NCBI GenBank assembly: GCA_965228895.1
Contig: OZ245842.1
Location: 960,001-1,024,000 of the forward strand
DNA: 64,000 nucleotides
Direction: 5' to 3'
From: Alphaproteobacteria bacterium
GTDB lineage: Bacteria; Pseudomonadota; Alphaproteobacteria; SP197
Of the stretch, positions 24,908-32,379 are shown piece after piece; position 1 is the stretch's first letter; every line of letters starts with the position of its first letter. Under the pieces are notes generated by a model, which made no database searches, had not been told where the DNA came from, and was given only the letters and a program-made list of their open reading frames with translations. The translations under genes and the position numbers were made by a program.

Positions 24908-26542
24908 TCAACCGTCGCCCCGGCCTTGACCGCCGTTGCCTTGACCATTGCCATTGCCGCTGTTGCCGTGTCCGGCATTGCCGTTCTGGTCGCCCCGGCC
25001 AGCATTCGGCTGGCCGTTGCCAGCGCCACCGGTCCCGTTGCCGTCGCCGGTTCCACTGTGACCGCCGGAGCTGCCGCCATGGCCGCTCGACCCACCGGAG
25101 CTGCTGCCACCGCTCGAACCGCCGTGGCCGCCGGATCCACCGGAGCCGCTGCCGCCGCCTGAGCCGCCGTGGCCGCCCGAACCGCCGTGGCCGCCGGATC
25201 CACCGGAGCCGCTGCCACCGCCTGAGCCGCCGTGACCGCCCGAACCACCGTGGCCGCCGGATCCACCGGAGCCGCTGCCACCGCCTGAGCCGCCGTGACC
25301 GCCCGAACCACCGTGGCCGCCGGATCCACCGGAGCCGCTGCCACCGCCTGAGCCGCCGTGACCGCCCGAACCACCGTGGCCGCCGGATCCACCGGAGCCG
25401 CTGCCGCCGCCTGAGCCGCCGTGACCGCCCGAACCACCGTGGCCGCCGGATCCACCGGAGCCGCTGCCGCCGCCTGAGCCGCCGTGACCGCCTGAGCCGC
25501 CGTGGCCGCCGGATCCACCGGAGCCGCTGCCGCCGCCTGAGCCGCCGTGACCGCCCGAACCTCCGTGGCCGCCGGAGCTGCCGCCGTGACCACCGGAGCT
25601 GCCGCCATGGCCGCCGGAGCTGCCGCCGTGACCGCCGGAGCTACCACCGTGTCCGCTGGACCCGCCGTGTCCGCTCGATCCGCCGTGGCCGCTGGACCCA
25701 CCGTGTCCGCTGGACCCGCCGTGACCGCTCGATCCGCCGTGTCCGCTCGATCCGCCGTGTCCGCTGGACCCGCCGTGACCGCTCGATCCGCCGTGTCCGC
25801 TGGACCCACCGTGTCCGCTGGATCCACCGTGACCGCTCGATCCGCCGTGGCCGCTGGACCCGCCGTGACCGCTCGATCCGCCGTGTCCACTGGATCCACC
25901 GGAGCTACCGCCGCTCGAACCACCGGAGCTACCGCCGCTCGAACCACCGGAGCTACCGCCGCTCGAACCACCGGAGCTACCGCCGCTCGAACCACCGGAG
26001 CTACCGCCGCTCGAACCACCGGAGCTACCGCCGCTCGAACCACCGGAGCTACCGCCGCTCGAACCACCGGAGCTACCGCCGCTCGAACCACCGGAGCTAC
26101 CGCCGCTCGAACCGCCGGAGCTGCCGCCGCTCGAACCACCGGAGCTGCCGCCGCTCGAACCGCCGGAGCTGCCGCCACTCGAACCGCCGGAGCTACCGCC
26201 ACTCGAACCGCCGGAGCTACCGCCACGATCGTTGTCATGGCCAGAGGGCCGATCACCAGATGGCGATGGCTGATCACTGGGACCCGCCGCGGGCGTGATT
26301 GTCGTCAGGTCTTCAAGATAGGTAAGGCATTCGCCGGATTGAACAGCCGCCTGCAGTTCGTCGGGCGACATGGTCGAACACGATGCCATTGCCCGGGGCG
26401 AGGTGTGCCAAAGCTCACGCTCTGCCGCATCGGACGAATAGGGGAGGCCCGCCGTCGCCAGGGCCAGCATGCCTGTGCCAAGCAGTCCAGCACGGCCCCA
26501 CTTGTAGCAGGCCAGCCATCCGCTATTGGGATTTTTCATCAT
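24908..26542 (-). CDS. Secreted Gly/Ser/His-rich tandem-repeat protein
   Basis: GGGAG RBS, signal-peptide-like N-terminus, short unique region with two Cys, then (GGSS)n, (GHGGSS)14, (GGHGGSS)4, a 21-aa unit about 7 times, and a Gly/Asn tail. Repeat variation is mostly at third codon positions in this frame. Confidence 0.8.
   Translation of the reverse strand: MMKNPNSGWLACYKWGRAGLLGTGMLALATAGLPYSSDAAERELWHTSPRAMASCSTMSPDELQAAVQSGECLTYLEDLTTITPAAGPSDQPSPSGDRPSGHDNDRGGSSGGSSGGSSGGSSGGSSGGSSGGSSGGSSGGSSGGSSGGSSGGSSGGSSGGSSGGSSGGSSGGSSGGSSGGSSGGSSGGSSGGSSGGSSGGSSGGSSGGSSGGSSGGSSGHGGSSGHGGSSGHGGSSGHGGSSGHGGSSGHGGSSGHGGSSGHGGSSGHGGSSGHGGSSGHGGSSGHGGSSGHGGSSGHGGSSGGHGGSSGGHGGSSGGHGGSSGGHGGSGGHGGSGGGSGSGGSGGHGGSGGHGGSGGGSGSGGSGGHGGSGGHGGSGGGSGSGGSGGHGGSGGHGGSGGGSGSGGSGGHGGSGGHGGSGGGSGSGGSGGHGGSGGHGGSGGGSGSGGSGGHGGSGGHGGSGGGSGSGGSGGHGGSSGGSSSGGSSGHGGSSGGHSGTGDGNGTGGAGNGQPNAGRGDQNGNAGHGNSGNGNGQGNGGQGRGDG
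25120..26225. repeat. Nested coding tandem repeats (63-bp x about 7, 21-bp x about 4, 18-bp x 14, 24-bp x about 13)
   Basis: GGATCC recurs at 25133, 25196, 25259, 25322, 25385, 25448 and 25511 (63-bp period). 18-bp period from 25648 to 25890. CCGGAGCTACCGCCGCTCGAACCA repeats from 25899 to 26225. Confidence 0.95.
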
Positions 26543-27152
26543 TCATACTCCCGTTGAGAGATAACGGCGACAGTCATGGCCTCGGGCGCCGTTGCTGATT
26601 GGGAGATGGCGAGGGGGCGGGTGCGTTACTCCTCAGATTGTCAGCCGCGCCGCGCAGCTTGAGAAGTTTCGTTGGCCGGACAAAATGCGAATGCCTCTAA
26701 TTGTCTTTTGATCATCAGTAAAATCAATCACTTAGGATTCATGTTCATAGTAGGCATGCAAAAAGCGCCGGTGCCTTTTCGATGCCGCCAAATGGCCTGC
26801 TGATGGCCACATTTCGATTGGCTTCAAATCGGCCGACCGCTGAGGATGGGAATTTGCCAATCGCCAAACAGAGTTCGAACTTGTTGTCAGAAAAGTGGGA
26901 TTTATCCCAAAGTATGGTCGAAATGTGGCAGCCGAGGCGGCGCGTTGGAAGCCGCTCATCACAGATCCCGGTCGTGTACCGGCTGGACACACGAGAACTG
27001 GCCCGTGACATGGCGGACAGGGCACTTAGAATGCATTGGGCGCGGCTAAGGGGCAGGCCAAGGGGGATCAGCGATGGCCGGACAATCTGAAGGCGCTTTG
27101 GTGGCTGCTGCGCGGCCCGCGGAGCGAACCCTTGCGGGCTAAAGCTCGCGCA

Positions 27153-28115
27153 ATGTCACGAGGGGCTCTGTTATCCATCGGTGTGGCCGTCCTGCTGTCG
27201 GCGTGCTCGACGGCTGACTACGCGCAACCCGTGAACACCTTCGCCGATGCCAGCCGCACGGCTGAGGACGCACTCGGCGCCCTCAACGACAGTGTCACCG
27301 AGGGCTACGCCAATTACGTTCGCTCGTTGGCGAGCAATGGCGATGGTCTGGTCGAGATCACCGACGGCGATTGCCTTGTTGCTTCCGAGCGTTGCCGCCT
27401 GACCGTCTTCGTCCGGGCCGACGGGTCGGAGAAACAGCTGGCGCCTGATGCGGCGCTGGCGAACATGCTGGTCGTGATGGCGGGAATCCGCGCCTATGCC
27501 GACAACCTCACCCGTATCGTCACGGCCGATACCGCGGCCGCCGCCAGCGCCAACGTGAACGCGACCATCGGCAGCGTGCAGAATCTGGCCACCATCATCG
27601 CGGCGCAACTGGGCGAACCGGGTGCCGCTGTCCCCGATGTCGCCGCGCCGGTCGGCGCAGCCGCCAACTGGCTGCTCGGTCAGTACGTCGAGAGCGTCAA
27701 GCTCGATGGGCTGCGTCATGCCACCGCAACCGCCCAGCCCGTGGTCGCGGAGGCCGCCGATCTGTTCGAGCAGGCTGGCGACGTCTCGGCGGTTCTGCCC
27801 AAGGCGTTGTTGGCTGCGGACGTCCAGCGACAGTTGGATGTCTATCGCCAGACCAGCAGCGAAGCCAATCTCGATCGCCTGATTGCGACAGCCGACGCCT
27901 ATGACGCGTTTCTTGTCGCCAAGCCCTCGCAAGTCTTCGCCCGCCTGCGCGAGGCCCACGACGCCCTGGCCGATAGCCTGAACAACGAGGATCTGTCCCT
28001 GGCTGCCGCCATGGCGAAGATCGAGGTCTTCGCGGCCGAAGCCGGGGCCTTTGCAAAGATCATGAAGGACTTGTCGAGCGCCTTGGCCAGTGCGCCCACG
28101 GGAGGCGATCCATGA
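27153..28115 (+). CDS. Hypothetical alpha-helical lipoprotein
   Basis: MSRGALLSIGVAVLLSAC lipobox, Ala-rich helical body and a central apolar segment (AAVPDVAAPVGAAANWLLG). Confidence 0.75.
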   Translation: MSRGALLSIGVAVLLSACSTADYAQPVNTFADASRTAEDALGALNDSVTEGYANYVRSLASNGDGLVEITDGDCLVASERCRLTVFVRADGSEKQLAPDAALANMLVVMAGIRAYADNLTRIVTADTAAAASANVNATIGSVQNLATIIAAQLGEPGAAVPDVAAPVGAAANWLLGQYVESVKLDGLRHATATAQPVVAEAADLFEQAGDVSAVLPKALLAADVQRQLDVYRQTSSEANLDRLIATADAYDAFLVAKPSQVFARLREAHDALADSLNNEDLSLAAAMAKIEVFAAEAGAFAKIMKDLSSALASAPTGGDP

Positions 28116-28519
28116 CCGACCAGGAAACCGTTGCCGACATCATGGCGGATGCCAACGCGCAGCGCGAAAACCTTGAGGAGCTTGAGCGCTCACTGCAGGC
28201 GGACATCAAGCAAATCGACCGGACGGCGTTCATGGAAAGCCGTCCGCTGACCGATGACGAAAAGACGCGTCGAGCGGAGCTCCGGGCCAGCCAGGAAAAG
28301 GTCGGGAACGCCTATGTGCAGTGGGCCTATCTGACCGCCAAGCGCCTGGACGACAGTGCTGAGGTCGACGTCATCAAGGCCAAACTCGACGCGGTGAATC
28401 TCAGCCTGGCCGATGACCTCGGGCGGTTGAAGAACGTCGAACGCTACGCGGAGATCGCGGCGAAGGTTGCCGAGGGCGCGGTCAAGATCGCGGGCAAGAT
28501 CGCCAAGCTCGCCATTTAG
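28112..28519 (+). CDS. Hypothetical coiled-coil protein with amphipathic basic C-terminal helix
   Basis: ATGA overlap with the lipoprotein gene, GGAGG RBS, heptad pattern; ends IAAKVAEGAVKIAGKIAKLAI. Confidence 0.78.
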   Translation: MTDQETVADIMADANAQRENLEELERSLQADIKQIDRTAFMESRPLTDDEKTRRAELRASQEKVGNAYVQWAYLTAKRLDDSAEVDVIKAKLDAVNLSLADDLGRLKNVERYAEIAAKVAEGAVKIAGKIAKLAI

Positions 28520-28540: not shown

Positions 28541-28846
28541 TTAGTCGTCGGTCACCTGATCGAGGGGAACGCGCTCGCCGCGCAGTTCGACATAGGCCTC
28601 CTTAAGGCCCGACATACTCTCGACGAGACCTTTGAGTTCGTCGACCAGTTCGCGTGTGCTTTTGATGATGACGACGCTGGCGGCAATGATCGCGACCGTC
28701 TCGGCGACACCGAAACGCAGCTCCATGGGTTCGGCATCGGCATCCTCGACACCATCGAAGGCGGCCAGACGTTGCTGGATCTCGGCCGCCAGCGCGTCGG
28801 CATCGACGCCTTCCTCAAGCTCGAACTGCAGGGTGTACTCGCTCAT
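28541..28846 (-). CDS. Small acidic protein with one central hydrophobic helix (candidate CHAT substrate/effector)
   Basis: AAGGAG RBS; ATG lies 1 nt after the CHAT stop. Hydrophobic segment FGVAETVAIIAASVVII. Confidence 0.78.
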   Translation of the reverse strand: MSEYTLQFELEEGVDADALAAEIQQRLAAFDGVEDADAEPMELRFGVAETVAIIAASVVIIKSTRELVDELKGLVESMSGLKEAYVELRGERVPLDQVTDD

Positions 28847-28847
28847 C

Positions 28848-30701
28848 TCACTCTCCTTCGTCAATTGCCGGACGGGCGAGGCTGCTACCTGTCGCCGTCA
28901 GCTGGAATGGCGCCCAGTAGAACCGCTTTTGCCGAAGTCTCTTGGCCCCCGCCAGATAGTCGCACAAGGCGCGCTGCAGGGCGACATCGCAAGGCGCCCC
29001 GGCGAGGAGATGGCGGTGCAAGGCGACGCCGACCCGGCGGCTGGTTTCGCTGTGTACCGGCCACAGGCTGGCGACGATCTCCTTGACGCCGGCGGCAAAG
29101 AAGGCCGCCTGTAGGCCGAACAGCTCGTCGCCGGGCAAGACATCCATGCCGCGCCCGCCGATCGCGCGCTGTCCGGAGCAACAGGCGCTCAAGACGACCA
29201 GGTCCGCATCCAGATTGAGCAGCGAAATCTCGATGCCGTCGAGCTCGGAGGTGGCAAGGCACAGGCTCGATTCCATCGGCGTGTCGGCATCGATGTTCAT
29301 GCCGTGGCAAGCGATGTGCAGGCGTCGCGCGGCCCTTAACCGACCGTCGGACGACATCGCGTTCAGGGCCGGCTCGTTGGCGCCGGCGCCGCGCAACGCC
29401 GTCGCTGCCGTACCTGCCTCGCGGTAGAGCGCCTCGAGGTCGTCAACTTCCTGTTCGGCATCGGGCAGTGGGGGCCAGGACTTGCCGGGGATGTCGTAGG
29501 TTTCGATCCCCAGCGCCAGCAACTGACCGTCGCCATCGTCGCGCGGGCCTTCCAGAAGCAGCGATGTCAGGTTGGGCGCTAGCCGAATGGCGTAGCGTTT
29601 GATCAGGTAGTCGCCGGCGATCTCCAGCGCCGCGAAGGGCAGGGCATGGAGAACCTGGTGCGGCGATATGATCAGTCTGTCACAGCGCGCCAGGATGTCG
29701 GTGGCTACGGCGTTCGTGGGCCGTAGCAGGTCGGCGAAGTCCTGAACCGCATCGATGCGGCTCATCGCCGTACCGAACTCGAAGGTCAGAATGTCTCGCG
29801 CGAACGCATCGAGCGCGATGCGCTCGCCGTCCGTGATCGTCTTGATCTCGCTGGCGACATCGTCGCGGTCGAGAACAAGGCATAACAGCCACTGCCGGTC
29901 GAGCCAGTAATAGTAAATGACGGCCTGGCGATCCGCCAAGCTCGCCTGAACCCGTTCCAGGCTGACGATGCCAAGGTCGTTGCCGCCGCCATGTTGGCGA
30001 TTGGTCGCGATGGCGATGAGGTCCCAGAGCAGCTGGCGTTCGGCCAACATCTTTGACGGTACGTCGCCACGCTGGCGGCCTTTTTCGATGCGCTCGTTAA
30101 GGCGGTGAAACCGGTCAGATAATTCGTTACGGTCCAGGCCTTCCAGGTCGTCAGCCCGGCCCGTCGTATCGCCGACCAATCCGCGGCACTTCGACAGCTC
30201 GGCGCGCTCGACCATGGTCGCGATGTCGCCGGTTTCTGCCGCCGCGCGAACGCCCAGGCTATAGAGCGCGATGCGCGAACGCAGGTAGCTGCTCCGCAGA
30301 TAAGTCGACGACACGCGATAGCGGTATCTCTCAACGATGGCGATGCCGTCGCCGCAGGTCTGATCAACCGCCTGCCAATCCCCAAGCCGCGCCTGGCATT
30401 CGGCGCGAAGCGCCAGGATGCGCACGCGGATATCCTGCTCTCGCAGGTCGCCCAGCGCGGTGAGGGCGTCATCGAGCGCTGCCAGCGCGTCGGCAGTCTC
30501 GCCGCGGGCAAGGTGGATCTCCCCTGTTCGACTCATCGCGACGGCAATCAGGTCGGGCACGCCGAGCAGTTCCGCATCGGCGCGCGTGCTGTGGGCGAGA
30601 TCCAGCAGATCGTCGCGGTTGTCGTCGGGTCCGCGCCGCCGGTTTTCCAGATCCAAACGTTCAAGAGCGCGCGCAACGCGAATTGGCGCCGACATACTCA
30701 T
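28848..30701 (-). CDS. CHAT-domain (caspase/HetF-like) protease with N-terminal TPRs
   Basis: LIISPHQVLHALPFAAL, LHIACHG (catalytic His), LVVLSACCSG (catalytic Cys), GLQAAFFAAG, ASLWPV and YWAPFQL. Confidence 0.93.
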   Translation of the reverse strand: MSMSAPIRVARALERLDLENRRRGPDDNRDDLLDLAHSTRADAELLGVPDLIAVAMSRTGEIHLARGETADALAALDDALTALGDLREQDIRVRILALRAECQARLGDWQAVDQTCGDGIAIVERYRYRVSSTYLRSSYLRSRIALYSLGVRAAAETGDIATMVERAELSKCRGLVGDTTGRADDLEGLDRNELSDRFHRLNERIEKGRQRGDVPSKMLAERQLLWDLIAIATNRQHGGGNDLGIVSLERVQASLADRQAVIYYYWLDRQWLLCLVLDRDDVASEIKTITDGERIALDAFARDILTFEFGTAMSRIDAVQDFADLLRPTNAVATDILARCDRLIISPHQVLHALPFAALEIAGDYLIKRYAIRLAPNLTSLLLEGPRDDGDGQLLALGIETYDIPGKSWPPLPDAEQEVDDLEALYREAGTAATALRGAGANEPALNAMSSDGRLRAARRLHIACHGMNIDADTPMESSLCLATSELDGIEISLLNLDADLVVLSACCSGQRAIGGRGMDVLPGDELFGLQAAFFAAGVKEIVASLWPVHSETSRRVGVALHRHLLAGAPCDVALQRALCDYLAGAKRLRQKRFYWAPFQLTATGSSLARPAIDEGE

Positions 30702-30737
30702 CGTTGTTCTCGAGAACGGATGGCGCGACTACATTGC

Positions 30738-32174
30738 TTAAGACGGACCGGATTTGCCGCCGTTCAGCAGTGCCATCATCTGCGCGCCAAAGTCCTGGCT
30801 CGCGGACTGGCTATCCATCGCCTCGGCGCGCTCCAGATACGTTGCCGCACGCTCGGGATCGTCATCGCGATAGGCCGAAGCAAGGGCGTGGTAGAGGCGC
30901 ATATAGTGGCCGCGCACCGCCATGCTTTTTTCAATGTCGGTTTCGCCGGCCTGGGCCTCGCCCGCCATCAAGGCCTGCATGGACGCCATGAGCGACTGTG
31001 CGAGATCATCGCTGCCCGGGTTTTCGTGACCCATCGCCACCAAAAGATCTTCCGCATCATGCAGGTGTTCGCGCGCGCCGAAGTCGTCGCCATTCCGATT
31101 GATGGCTTCACCCAGGGCGATCAGCGTCTCGACGCGATCAAGCGAGGGCGTCGTCTGTTCCAGTAGCGTGCGTTGCAGGCTTTCGATTTCGGCGTCGGTA
31201 TCGCCGGACAGCACGATCTCCAGCGCGTCGATCTTCTCCTGACACTTGGCGATCTCCGCCGTGTCGCCGGCAGCCTTGTAAGCATCGAGCGCTTGGTGGA
31301 GAAATCCGAGCGCCTGCTTGTCGTCGCGCAACGATTCCGCCGCCATGGCGGCAAACGTCAAGGCTTGGCCGATCTTTCTGTTGAGGTCGGCATCGGAATA
31401 CATGCCGTGAGCCGAGGGCGGCGCGTCCAACACACGCCGGTAGGCGCTGCAGATATCCAAGAGTTCGTCGATCACCGCGGCGTCGGCGGATCCCGGCATC
31501 AACCGCGTCATGGCTGCGGTAACGCGGCTGTCGGTCTGAATGTAGAGCTGCAGCGCGGCCATCTCATCGAGCGGCTCGCCGGTGTCTTGAGTCGCCGATT
31601 GGCCGGCGGAGACCTGTTCGCTGAACGACGAAAAGATCTCGCGTGCGTGGCGTTGAAAGGCGTCGACTTCCTGGGCAACACGACTGGCGCCCGCGCTGAT
31701 GTTGGCGGTGGCGCTGTCGGCAAGTTCTGCCGCCGGGCTTGTCCCGGTGCCCGTGCCGGCGCCGGCCGCGAGCGCTTCCTGGCGGAACATCTGGGCGTAC
31801 TGCGCGACGGCTTCCAGGTTCTGCAGGCGGGTCTGCAATTGCTGATAGACCGGGTTGGGATTGCCGGAAACACCGGCCTGGATCTCGGCCATGGATTGGG
31901 CCATCTGATCCTCGAAACTGGCGCCCCATGATTCGCCGCTGCCGAACTGCGCGGTGTTGTTCAACTGCTGCTGTGTTTGCGTGTAGAGCATGTTGAGCGC
32001 GTTCAAGAAGGCTTGATAGCCATCGTTATCCAGCTCGAAGACCTTGTCGTGCAGGGCCTGATGGGCCTGCTCATAGGTCATCGTCATCAGACTTTCGATG
32101 AACGTGGTGTGCATCAGGTACTGCGCACCGGCATTCGCGACCGTGGCAGCGGCTTCCTTGATCCAATCCCACAT
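30738..32174 (-). CDS. TPR-like all-helical protein
   Basis: GGGGGAGG RBS, Gln-rich N-terminal coiled coil, and TPR-like pairs (ALGFLHQALDAYKAAGD, LIALGEAINRNGDDFGAREHLHDAE, YHALASAYRDDDPERAATYLERAE). Confidence 0.75.
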   Translation of the reverse strand: MWDWIKEAAATVANAGAQYLMHTTFIESLMTMTYEQAHQALHDKVFELDNDGYQAFLNALNMLYTQTQQQLNNTAQFGSGESWGASFEDQMAQSMAEIQAGVSGNPNPVYQQLQTRLQNLEAVAQYAQMFRQEALAAGAGTGTGTSPAAELADSATANISAGASRVAQEVDAFQRHAREIFSSFSEQVSAGQSATQDTGEPLDEMAALQLYIQTDSRVTAAMTRLMPGSADAAVIDELLDICSAYRRVLDAPPSAHGMYSDADLNRKIGQALTFAAMAAESLRDDKQALGFLHQALDAYKAAGDTAEIAKCQEKIDALEIVLSGDTDAEIESLQRTLLEQTTPSLDRVETLIALGEAINRNGDDFGAREHLHDAEDLLVAMGHENPGSDDLAQSLMASMQALMAGEAQAGETDIEKSMAVRGHYMRLYHALASAYRDDDPERAATYLERAEAMDSQSASQDFGAQMMALLNGGKSGPS

Positions 32175-32379
32175 CGTTCACCTCCCCCGGTGACCGGTCT
32201 CGTGGCGCTCGACAGATGACGGTCGTCCCGTGCCGTCAGATCAAAGACAGTGGAATGATAACGAATCGTCGGCTTGCTGGCCAATTCCGGCGAATCGACC
32301 GAAATTGCCCGTCTCGACTTGACAGAAAGATCAGTCACCCGTTGCCTGGGCCGGGAAACTCTGCAGTTGGGAGAGACGC

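Follow-up and report, generated by a model that had tools for sequence, protein, structure and literature searches.

Protease-Activated Effector Systems in Bacteria

Death effectors that are switched on by proteases are emerging as a major principle in bacterial immune systems, and caspase-gasdermin signalling offers a parallel; to our knowledge, few effector families have been studied so far. CHAT proteases act as regulated switches, like Csx29 with Csx30 in type III-E CRISPR, the gasdermin proteases and HetF, and we know of very few members for which substrate rules have been established. A caspase-dependent ternary conflict system, CATRA, with a CATRA-associated small protein named CATASP, was reportedly described by Burroughs and Aravind in J Bacteriol in 2020. 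In the part of a 2026 preprint that was accessible, CATASP is presented as a ligand-binding sensor domain.

For EACC1, a small protein encoded beside a caspase-like protease, the accessible parts of two reports describe cleavage into pieces of 5.7 and 7.1 kDa, with toxicity and liposome permeabilisation residing in the C-terminal piece only (Kaur 2020, PMC7159879; Evans 2025, bioRxiv 10.1101/2025.11.14.688446). The accessible part of the second report also describes EACC1-protease modules that are fused to DnaK-like chaperones, for which general stress roles were suggested, and the Pepco proteins (Trypco1/2), which form a pre-assembled beta-barrel pore that becomes active once a C-terminal tail is removed (Evans 2025, bioRxiv 10.1101/2025.11.14.688446).

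Organization of the Locus

The window analysed is a stretch of 64,000 nucleotides from an alphaproteobacterial genome. It contains three minus-strand open reading frames, designated A, B and C, probably a module in which a protease gates cell death or defence, and, beside them, a convergent gene pair:

30738..32174, minus strand: gene A, open reading frame for 478 amino acids, member of a rare family
28848..30701, minus strand: gene B, open reading frame for 617 amino acids, with a helical, possibly TPR-containing region in the N-terminal part and the CHAT protease in the C-terminal part
28541..28846, minus strand: gene C, open reading frame for 101 amino acids from ATG, encoding a small alpha+beta protein that is predicted to be the substrate and effector
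28853..28858, minus strand: AAGGAG, ribosome-binding site of C as read from the sequence, inside the last codons of B and about 7 nt before the ATG of C
32255..32284, minus strand: sigma-70-like promoter candidate TTGGCC/18 nt/TATCAT, about 80 nt upstream of A, from a consensus scan only
27036..28519, plus strand: convergent pair of open reading frames for a putative lipoprotein of 359 amino acids and a helical protein of 135 amino acids, genus-limited like the trio

The placement of the three genes in the list of open reading frames agrees with that given in an earlier, sequence-only reading of this DNA, and the compact operon reported there, its genes separated by 36 nt and 1 nt, is confirmed by the junctions. 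Gene A ends with TAA at 30738, and after 36 nt the ATG of B follows at 30701; B ends with TGA at 28850-28848, and the ATG of C follows after 1 nt at 28846. With the 1-nt gap and the ribosome-binding site lying within B, B and C appear to be translationally coupled. For C, an in-frame TTG upstream, at 28864, would give an alternative start and a protein of 107 amino acids. GGAGG directly precedes the ATG of A; the promoter scan gave 4 promoter-like sites in the region versus a mean of 1.3 in shuffles and is functionally uninformative.

A, B and C are all real genes. Compared with the copies in another genome of the same genus (G404), A differs by 146 synonymous and 47 non-synonymous codons out of 478, and C by 30 synonymous and 2 non-synonymous codons out of 101. 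Identity to these copies amounts to 98% for C, 90% for A and 84% for B; no other gene of the locus is conserved as well as C.

The neighbours of the trio are ABC-transport, DUF1330, GntR-family, metabolic and unknown genes; no recognisable defence or phage genes were seen among them, and no defence island. The earlier observation that genes for a CRISPR effector, a gasdermin or a STAND NTPase are lacking nearby holds for the Pfam results of the neighbours. A comparison with PADLOC-DB v2.0.0 (2023), of the kind proposed earlier, returned no family at E <= 0.1 for A, B, C or the two convergent genes.

The CHAT Protease

B is the sole CHAT match in a six-frame search of its own genome. The following features were located in the gene:

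28899..29690, minus strand: CHAT domain, B residues 338-601 (PF12770, E 3.5e-42, 145.3 bits, cut-off 24)
29304..29306, minus strand: codon of the catalytic His466 within HIACHG, from the translation, invariant in the aligned B homologues
29181..29183, minus strand: codon of the catalytic Cys507 within LSACC, from the translation, invariant in the aligned B homologues

Both residues are retained in all 3 aligned homologues, the most distant of which has an identity of 29%, and B can be classified from its sequence as a bona fide CHAT protein with an intact His-Cys dyad, as had been claimed before. The N-terminal part was also labelled TPR at that time; here only sub-threshold Pfam matches were obtained, the best being TPR_12 with E 0.013 and 16 bits versus a cut-off of 30.

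Gene C and Its Protein Family

C belongs to an unnamed family of proteins of about 110 amino acids, which comprises 157 clusters (at 50% identity) at E <= 1e-3 and for which no Pfam, NCBIfam or PADLOC model was found. Stand-alone proteins are by far the commonest form, most of them with 105-130 amino acids among the 150 matches listed. Two features of C are central to its predicted role:

28715..28717, minus strand: codon of Arg44, predicted P1 residue of the cleavage loop (Arg in 60 and Lys in 2 of 66 family members)
28664..28708, minus strand: hydrophobic segment VAETVAIIAASVVII, C residues 47-61, the top 15-residue window (mean Kyte-Doolittle 2.47)

In an alignment of 66 sequences, the family motif consists of V33 (62/66), P40 (38/66), R44 and E49 (54/66), behind which come about 12 hydrophobic residues and an Arg or Lys at position 62 (51/66). 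The segment 47-61 has A, A and S at its centre and is flanked by beta-alpha-beta and alpha-beta-beta elements. The sequence-only reading had assigned a hydrophobic helix to the 101-aa protein. The hydrophobic stretch of 15 residues was recovered, but in the monomer model, a ferredoxin-like fold that was confident in 1 of 5 models (pLDDT 78.5, the other four 53-56), residues 47-61 form a buried beta-strand, beta3, and no helix. With 12-15 residues, the stretch is short for a membrane helix. If C were split at Arg44, an acidic piece of 4.9 kDa (residues 1-44) and a piece of 6.2 kDa (residues 45-101) are predicted.

The C domain also occurs in two proteins as an N-terminal fusion to a typical immune effector, which is a TIR domain in P0133 and a PNP_UDP nucleosidase-like domain in P0148.

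Distribution of the Module

Among 33 genomes of the order, the trio was identified in its own genus only. In a distant genome (G581), one of 251 in its family with the module, a B homologue with 29% identity over the full length (E 8e-54) is followed by a C protein that matches the C family profile with E 2.7e-9; as here, the CHAT domain is C-terminal and C lies 3' of the protease. At the position of A, this one full distant locus contains an unrelated protein of 454 amino acids, and an IS200-type transposase is located about 800 nt upstream of the cluster. In a further protein (P0118), a B-like CHAT C-terminus reads straight through into a C-family protein. Another genome (G064) contains a remnant of the C family, with no CHAT gene within the 16 kb examined. 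Thus, the CHAT-then-C adjacency is kept at long range (G581, P0118), the distribution of the module is sporadic and very patchy, and of the three-gene synteny for which a search had been suggested, the protease-to-small-protein part is conserved, while A is replaced in G581.

Model of the Complex of B and C

A complex model of the protease with the small protein had also been suggested earlier, and the result was positive. For B and C, ipSAE values of 0.64, 0.71 and 0.67 (median 0.67) were obtained versus 0.00 for the best control; the runs share at least 84% of contacts, with a partner pLDDT of at least 82. Among solved complexes, 116 of 157 attain this mark, compared with 2 of 215 mismatched pairs; these counts are only rough with own alignments. 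On the side of B, the modelled interface comprises residues 464-468 (with His466), 505-508 (with Cys507) and 548-554; on the side of C, it comprises residues 41-47, Arg44 included, the output being residue segments and not an Arg44-Cys507 distance. The Arg44 loop of C is thereby predicted to sit against the catalytic dyad of B. By sequence, no solved relative of B or of the C family was found, so that recall of a known complex is unlikely.

Comparison with Described Systems

It had been stated that the locus matches no described system. This was too strong, since the EACC1-caspase two-gene module, judging from the accessible parts of the published work, shares the logic of B and C and by analogy appears to be the closest known system. 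In both cases, a protein of about 100-120 amino acids with alpha+beta flanks around a conserved, small-residue-rich hydrophobic central segment is encoded by a gene adjoining that of a caspase-superfamily cysteine protease. The fragment sizes are similar (5.7/7.1 kDa published for EACC1, 4.9/6.2 kDa predicted for C), the N-terminal piece joins C-terminal strands in a beta-sheet in the published model as in the C monomer model, and fusions of the small domain to further conflict domains occur in some cases. On the same partial view of the sources, there are also differences. The gene order is reversed, with C located 3' and EACC1 5' of the protease gene; B has a C-terminal CHAT domain behind a helical region, whereas in the EACC1 protease the caspase domain is N-terminal and precedes variable sensor or effector domains; for the P1 residue, Arg44 is predicted in C, compared with a putative Asp49 site in EACC1; and a third gene, A, is present here.

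The analogy to EACC1 rests on architecture and not on demonstrated homology, since C gave no match to the EACC1 model PF19953, either in the six-frame search of its own genome at E <= 10 or in a direct scan. Likewise, PF19953 was found in 0 of 150 scanned members of the C family at E <= 0.01 and in 0 of 401 genomes of a phylum sample, the control genomes also being without a match. An Atlas feature search of C gave, as a lead only, a cluster with 50% PF19953 carriers at rank 3 (score 0.89).

CATRA, as it is reported, resembles the trio in being a three-part caspase system. Pfam scans of A, B and the C family revealed no family with a CATRA or CATASP name, in a library that may lack such models; CATASP as a ligand-binding sensor, in the accessible part of the preprint, also differs from the role predicted for C.

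The type III-E Craspase shares with this locus a CHAT domain behind N-terminal helical repeats (Csx29) and one dedicated neighbouring substrate (Csx30 there, C by prediction here). However, B was rejected as a Csx29, with 25.1 bits versus a cut-off of 300 for NF041237, no Cas7-11/gRAMP, CRISPR array, Csx30 or sigma factor was found near the trio, and C is unrelated to Csx30 in size and fold. In bacterial gasdermins, a protease strips an inhibitory part to leave a membrane-permeabilising fragment. A gasdermin system was rejected for this locus, with no gasdermin family in the Pfam results for the neighbours and C having 101 amino acids and a ferredoxin-like model; moreover, the inhibitory part would be N-terminal in C, whereas it is C-terminal in gasdermins. 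Pepco proteins resemble C, as far as the accessible part of the source goes, in being small non-enzymatic proteins beside a protease with a single activating cut, but the predicted cut of C lies in the middle of the protein and not at a C-terminal tail; no Pepco-type Pfam match was found for C or the C family.

Proposed Mechanism and Alternative Explanations

The explanation we prefer, with a rough probability of 0.5 for the whole of it, is that B cuts C to release a membrane-active or oligomerising killer fragment in abortive infection, with A as sensor or brake. Uncut C would be a soluble ferredoxin-like domain, in which residues 47-61 are hidden as the central strand. B would bind C and make its cut at Arg44 or an adjacent position, in the loop that connects strand beta2 to the hydrophobic segment, so that the acidic N-terminal beta-alpha-beta piece is stripped off. 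The freed residues 45-101 could then oligomerise or enter the membrane, by which the cell would be killed or arrested, most likely for abortive-infection defence. A would act as a partner confined to its clade, either sensing the trigger or restraining B. Of the sensor-protease-effector cascade proposed in the sequence-only reading, the protease-to-small-protein half is supported by the distant adjacency, the complex model and the lack of CRISPR-effector, gasdermin and STAND NTPase genes among the neighbours; A as the sensor fits less well, given its narrow clade and the unrelated protein at its position in G581.

If true, this rare cluster would be a so far uncharacterised version of the cell-death modules that proteases trigger in bacteria, and it provides a compact and experimentally tractable CHAT protease with a dedicated substrate of 101 amino acids. 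It would define a CHAT cleavage motif, P-E-E-x-R with a hydrophobic residue behind it, and an effector family without a model that also occurs on TIR and nucleosidase enzymes, while the putative sensor would be a separate, exchangeable gene. A further-reaching joint reading is doubtful: that C founds a family of effector domains which are gated by a protease and have no relation to EACC1, with an Arg-specific CHAT protease cutting before a hydrophobic strand hidden in the ferredoxin-like fold and thereby turning the protein into an oligomerising or membrane-active killer, that the TIR and nucleosidase fusions carry this domain as a proteolytic 'safety catch', and that A is a new stand-alone sensor, its N-terminal domain representing a new sensor type without known relative.

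It is unlikely that C is a regulator and not a killer. Whether as a membrane tether, as a chaperone-like cap or as a pseudo-substrate inhibitor, C would then fill the active site of B until a signal dislodges it, and the true targets of B would be other proteins of the host or an invader. The position of C across the active site of B in the complex model fits an inhibitor and a substrate alike, the hydrophobic stretch is short and buried in the monomer model, and the C domains on the TIR and PNP_UDP enzymes could be regulatory pro-domains and not toxins. However, a propeptide that is activated by cleavage requires just the combination seen in C, an exposed loop with an almost invariant Arg and a conserved hydrophobic segment behind it; the stand-alone form predominates in the family, and the characterised analogue EACC1 is, in the accessible parts of the reports, an effector.

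Somewhat less probable still is a non-immune module for regulated proteolysis in a stress response, in development or in envelope physiology, possibly together with the convergent lipoprotein and 135-aa genes. HetF and other cyanobacterial CHAT proteins offer a comparison for such proteolysis. The ABC-transport and metabolic surroundings, which include no recognisable defence or phage genes, and the failure of PADLOC to match are consistent with it, as is the equal genus-limited distribution of the two convergent genes. Of the 33 genomes of the order, 2 were found to encode the 359-aa protein, its own and G404, and in G404 both convergent genes adjoin the trio; no Pfam family was identified for either protein. 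The patchy presence of the module, the transposase near the G581 copy and the fusion of the C domain to TIR and nucleosidase effectors argue against a non-immune role; patchiness, an adjacent transposase and such fusions are typical of conflict and not of housekeeping systems. In addition, neither convergent gene has a relative at the G581 locus, and the pair can be regarded as an unproven candidate for membership only. General stress roles, as suggested for the EACC1-protease modules with DnaK-like chaperones in the accessible part of that report, would also favour a non-immune module (Evans 2025, bioRxiv 10.1101/2025.11.14.688446).

Gene A

For A, 9 homologous clusters were identified, with identities from 97% down to 38%, forming a narrow clade. 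Three regions can be distinguished:

31761..32174, minus strand: A residues 1-138, conserved N-terminal helical domain, from the alignment of the A family and the model
31581..31760, minus strand: A residues 139-198, poorly conserved, disordered linker, with a low-confidence model and variable, gapped alignment columns
30759..31565, minus strand: A residues 204-472, TPR-like helical solenoid (model pLDDT mostly 77-96)

In the N-terminal domain, M1-W2-D3 and S82-W83-G84-x-S86-F87-E88-D89 are invariant, and no Pfam family was found for it in scans of A and its family. The linker has a pLDDT below 50 at residues 139-171 and 176-198 and, in the alignment, contains AFQRHAR as a small conserved island. 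That B cuts A at this linker, besides or instead of C, and thereby releases the N-terminal helical domain as the active part is very unlikely: the arrangement of conserved domain, variable linker and TPR-like half recalls protease-released effectors, and the conserved island could be a hint of it, but A is missing from most of the range of the C family (9 versus 157 clusters). Nor can A be the core effector, given that G581 has an unrelated protein in its place.

The TPR label that A had been given agrees with the model of residues 204-472, for which VIA Z values of 12-13.4 were obtained with TPR structures, although such values may reflect a generic helical arrangement only. Foldseek matches of this region were to TPR proteins only, at E >= 2e-3. 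The best Pfam TPR match of A itself, TPR_7 with 19.8 bits, lies under the cut-off of 27.9, and TPR_12 matches 8 of 10 members of the A family at E <= 5, with a best value of 3.8e-4.

A putative operon of three genes

The putative operon consists of three genes encoding a helical-repeat partner (A), a CHAT protease (B) and a small protein (C):

30738..32174, minus strand: gene A, open reading frame of 478 aa
28848..30701, minus strand: gene B, open reading frame of 617 aa
28541..28846, minus strand: gene C, open reading frame of 101 aa counted from the ATG

The compact layout described in the sequence-only reading, with gaps of 36 nt and 1 nt, was recovered from the reading frames and their junctions: 36 nt lie between the stop codon of A and the ATG of B, and the ATG of C follows the TGA of B after one base. 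This single-base gap, together with an AAGGAG within the last codons of B, suggests that the translation of B and C is coupled. A GGAGG directly precedes the ATG of A, and a promoter-like site, identified by consensus match only, is located about 80 nt upstream of A.

Identity to the corresponding proteins of G404, a genome of the same genus, is 90% for A, 84% for B and 98% for C. The codons that differ between the two genomes are synonymous in 30 cases and non-synonymous in 2 for C, and in 146 and 47 cases, respectively, for A. This synonymous excess indicates that the trio consists of real genes under purifying selection. It had been considered that A and B might be a single gene split by a sequencing or assembly error. 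This was rejected, since the boundaries of the reading frames are identical in G404, a B start follows A also in G405, all nine A-family clusters (9/9) have a length of 437-481 aa and align through the C-terminus of A, and two separate genes are likewise present in the gene cluster of a distant genome, G581. The module formed by the trio is real, rare and compact, and its CHAT-C core was found again in distant lineages.

The protease and its predicted contact with the small protein

For B, initially described as a TPR-CHAT protease with intact His and Cys, the CHAT domain and the dyad were confirmed. The Pfam CHAT model matched residues 338-601 (E 3.5e-42, 145.3 bits against a cut-off of 24), and B is the sole CHAT match in its own 5.5-Mb genome. 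The catalytic residues His466 and Cys507 are present and are invariant in the alignment of B homologues (n=3), including a homologue of 29-31% identity. For the N-terminal 330 residues, all TPR matches were below threshold (best E 0.013), so that the TPR-CHAT label is at most plausible. In the NCBIfam scan, the only match of B was to Csx29, far below threshold with 25 bits against a cut-off of 300, and on this score an assignment of B as Csx29 was rejected. No solved structure matched B by sequence at E <= 0.01.

The complex was predicted from full-length B (3-row alignment) and C (66-row alignment), with three controls. The ipSAE values were 0.64, 0.71 and 0.67 (median 0.67), compared to 0.00 in all three controls, with at least 84% of the contacts common to the runs and a partner pLDDT of at least 82. 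The mark of the tool, which 116 of 157 solved complexes but also 2 of 215 mismatched pairs attained, is a rough guide here, as own alignments were supplied. In the model, the CHAT:small-protein contact is confidently placed between C 41-47, the loop with Arg44, and the B segments 464-468 (with His466), 505-508 (with Cys507) and 548-554, so that the loop would lie at the dyad. As neither B nor C has a solved relative by sequence, the prediction is unlikely to reproduce a known complex. The predicted substrate geometry of the CHAT-C core is specific. Cleavage after Arg44 would yield, as computed, an acidic N-terminal piece of 4.9 kDa and a C-terminal piece of 6.2 kDa, the latter starting with a hydrophobic segment.

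The most probable reading is that of a protease-gated effector. Activated B would cut C at or beside Arg44, after which the N-terminal beta-alpha-beta piece would stop shielding a hydrophobic strand, and the C-terminal piece would oligomerise or enter the membrane, by which the cell would be killed or arrested. A, or an unrelated first gene in other lineages, would serve in trigger recognition or restraint. For this reading as a whole, the probability is estimated at about 0.5. The family and dyad of B, the motif of C, the adjacency of the genes and the complex model were computed; cleavage, toxicity, trigger and biological role are what we infer. The placement of the Arg44 loop at the dyad also has to be weighed for a role of C as an inhibitor or tether of B, with C not being the killer, which is considered rather unlikely.

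The family of the small protein

A word-indexed search with C identified 4 close clusters, and an exhaustive profile search identified 157 clusters at E <= 1e-3, 46 of them at E <= 1e-10, nearly all with a length of 105-130 aa. In the alignment of 66 family members, position 44 is occupied by Arg in 60 sequences and by Lys in 2 more, and conservation was also found for V33 (62/66), E49 (54/66) and P40 (38/66). E49 is followed by about 12 hydrophobic or small residues and then by Arg or Lys at position 62 (51 of the 66). C had been described as containing one hydrophobic helix. The hydrophobic stretch in a small protein was confirmed, but the single confident one of five monomer models (pLDDT 78.5, the remaining four scoring 53-56) predicts a beta-alpha-beta-beta-alpha-beta-beta order in which this stretch forms strand beta3 and not a helix. 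The fold matches of the model are generic ferredoxin-like (S6, ACT, HMA and RND porter subdomains, Z 8-9), and with Foldseek no viral model was matched at E <= 0.001. C was matched by no Pfam, NCBIfam or PADLOC family, and its profile gave only chance-level matches to solved structures.

Two family members contain a complete C domain N-terminal to another domain, namely P0133 (296 aa), with a TIR domain, and P0148 (477 aa), with a PNP_UDP_1 nucleosidase-like domain. TIR and PNP_UDP-type nucleosidase domains are hallmark effectors of conflict systems. These fusions suggest that the C domain is a reusable cleavable module. That C represents an independent, unnamed effector family working as a general cleavable 'safety catch' is a tentative proposal, more doubtful than probable. 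In another member, P0086 (1751 aa), 5 stretches match the C-family profile (E 2.4e-8), and C-like domains may be arrayed in tandem in this protein; the Pfam matches of P0086 (Sbi-IV, zf-C2HC_2 and DUF4431) are short and odd.

The CHAT-C core in other lineages

For the C family, the genome searches scored part of the first-look candidates and the counts are lower bounds: at least 8 of 401 genomes in the phylum sample at E <= 0.001, of which the own genome and G581 are credible, at least 2 of 401 in the class sample (own genome and G064), and at least 1 of 251 in the taxonomic family of G581, G581 itself. Six matches in the phylum sample (L016-L021, from G687, G699, G702, G707, G733 and G766) were taken as false positives. 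These matches are weak (E 2e-5 to 5e-4), cover part of the profile (positions 5-94 or 12-94) and lie in open reading frames of 1030-1089 aa. They probably represent RND-pump porter subdomains with a ferredoxin-like fold, since the C model fold-matches AcrB and CusA.

G581 contains three co-directional genes for proteins of 454 aa, 583 aa and 132 aa. The 583-aa protein has a Pfam CHAT match and is 29% identical to B over the full length (E 8e-54). The 132-aa protein belongs to the C family (profile E 2.7e-9, local hmmsearch E 1.9e-12). The 454-aa protein showed no similarity to A by BLASTP and an hhalign probability of 0.13 against the A-family alignment; a weak C-terminal TPR_7 match (E 0.074) is the sole hint of an A-like architecture. 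In a third lineage, the 173-aa protein P0118 consists of a B-like CHAT C-terminus which continues straight into C-family sequence. The order CHAT then C was thus kept in both cases, with an unrelated first gene in G581, and therefore the conserved core is CHAT-C, while the first gene varies. Of the proposed three-gene synteny, the CHAT-C part held, but A is replaced in G581.

Upstream of the cluster in G581, at a distance of about 800 nt, an IS200-type (Y1_Tnp) transposase gene was identified (L022:3348-4022, plus strand), which would fit a horizontally mobile module. In G064, another genome of the class sample, a C-family gene is reduced to its C-terminal half (L034:8040-8471, minus strand; E 1.2e-7 for profile positions 66-113). 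Part of this sequence overlaps a gene for an MFS transporter, no CHAT gene was found in the 16 kb retrieved, and the sequence is read as a remnant.

In searches of genome contigs, a same-genus MAG was the sole match to B, and the alignment of B homologues identified no relative in viral contigs. A plasmid tblastn search with B gave 42 records, none covering 80% of B. The six plasmid records inspected contain other CHAT types. Two of these CHAT genes adjoin genes for two-partner secretion and T6SS, the neighbours of two more are unrelated, and the last two records carry no annotation. In all annotated records among the six, a small gene after CHAT is absent. The C-family proteins P0014 and P0029 gave no plasmid match by tblastn.

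Comparison to described systems

The system had been regarded as without match to a described one. The literature search found neither the trio nor the C family described, but the EACC1-caspase two-gene system, the nearest described system, is comparable in logic. In Kaur et al. 2020 (PMC7159879), EACC1 is described as the product of the 5' gene, a small protein whose single conserved hydrophobic helix is rich in small residues and has alpha+beta flanks; the 3' gene encodes the partner, in which an N-terminal caspase domain precedes a variable C-terminus. Evans et al. 2025 (bioRxiv 10.1101/2025.11.14.688446) report that a caspase-Avs12 fusion cuts EACC1 at the putative site Asp49 into pieces of 5.7 and 7.1 kDa, that the C-terminal piece alone is toxic, and that cleaved EACC1 permeabilises liposomes.

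On paper, the schemes for EACC1 and C look alike, and an Atlas lead from C to EACC1, with a score of 0.89, would allow for remote homology. C is set apart, however, by four features. The Pfam EACC1 model PF19953 matches neither C nor any of 150 scanned family members, the gene order is reversed (EACC1 is 5' of the protease, C is 3'), the protease architecture is inverted in B, and the putative site Asp49 contrasts with a predicted P1 Arg. Among the 14 proteins identified with the C-family alignment in a word-indexed search at E <= 10, 0 are annotated as PF19953. CATRA, attributed to Burroughs and Aravind 2020, is outlined in the literature as a ternary caspase system with the small protein CATASP; a relation of the trio to it would be conceivable. 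With the Craspase, gasdermin and Pepco systems, the trio has the logic in common but not the components. The trio is best classed with the known protease-activated small effectors; its components are unannotated and can be tested directly. Since the work of 2020 and 2025, a protease-gated logic has ceased to be surprising.

The genomic neighbourhood

To the right of the trio, a DUF1330 gene and an Opp-type ABC transporter are located. To the left, a GntR-family regulator is found together with the following features:

27036-28519, plus strand: convergent pair for a lipoprotein-like 359-aa protein and a helical 135-aa protein, with a 4-nt overlap, directed toward the trio
24908-26542, minus strand: 544-aa Gly/Ser/His-repeat open reading frame, in which a hydrophobic, signal-like segment at the N-terminus precedes about 400 residues of repeats

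By its gene content, this neighbourhood in the window is not a defence island. A PADLOC scan, proposed as a check in the sequence-only reading, gave 0 matches for A, B, C and the two convergent genes, and no known defence system was assigned to A, B or C. A module for stress or developmental proteolysis, and not for immunity, is nevertheless judged less likely still than an inhibitory or tethering C.

The stop codons of the 135-aa gene and of C are separated by 21 nt only. The 359-aa protein has a lipobox-like LLSAC motif behind its hydrophobic N-terminus, and neither it nor the 135-aa protein belongs to a Pfam family. Of 33 genomes of the order, two gave a match to the 359-aa gene, namely the own genome and G404. 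Both convergent genes also flank the trio in G404, and no relative of them was found in the G581 locus. The pair and the trio may lie in one acquired segment, but nothing ties the two together in function.

The repeats of the 544-aa protein, which has no Pfam family, are GGSS, GHGGSS and GGHGGSGGGSGSGGS. They correspond to tandem DNA arrays with periods of 63 (7.4 copies, 97% matches), 24 (13.7 copies, 98%) and 54. Long reading frames on the opposite strand or in other frames over the repeat are probably its by-products.

The first gene

The following domains are distinguished in A:

residues 1-138: N-terminal helical domain, strongly conserved, with invariant MWD and SWGxSFED
residues 139-198: linker, variable, low-confidence model
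residues 204-472: TPR-like solenoid in the model, with generic matches to TPR proteins

In a Foldseek comparison of the A model to the PDB, only TPR proteins were matched, at E >= 2e-3, and an Atlas feature search gave TPR-type leads only, all below 0.9. By profile comparison, A and B are unrelated. A homologues form 9 clusters among 5.8 billion proteins. In the own order, the A family is present in 3 of 33 genomes, comprising the own genome and two others of the genus, and in 0 of 30 genomes of other genera. In the class sample, a match at E <= 0.001 was obtained in 3 of 401 genomes, the own genome being the sole true match; the two others are partial TPR-type matches inside open reading frames of 902 and 970 aa and were rejected. 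From metagenomes, the A-family alignment retrieved one partial relative of 26% identity, on a contig ending within the gene.

We infer a role for A solely from its position and architecture. The A linker might also be a substrate of B, in addition to C or instead of it. This is compatible with the protease-gated effector reading, and is rated the least probable of the alternatives. Within the otherwise variable, low-confidence linker, a conserved island with the motif AFQRHAR was identified (31620-31680, minus strand, residues about 166-182), which could be a docking or cleavage motif. The island is present in 8 of 10 A-family members and is deleted in the two shortest.
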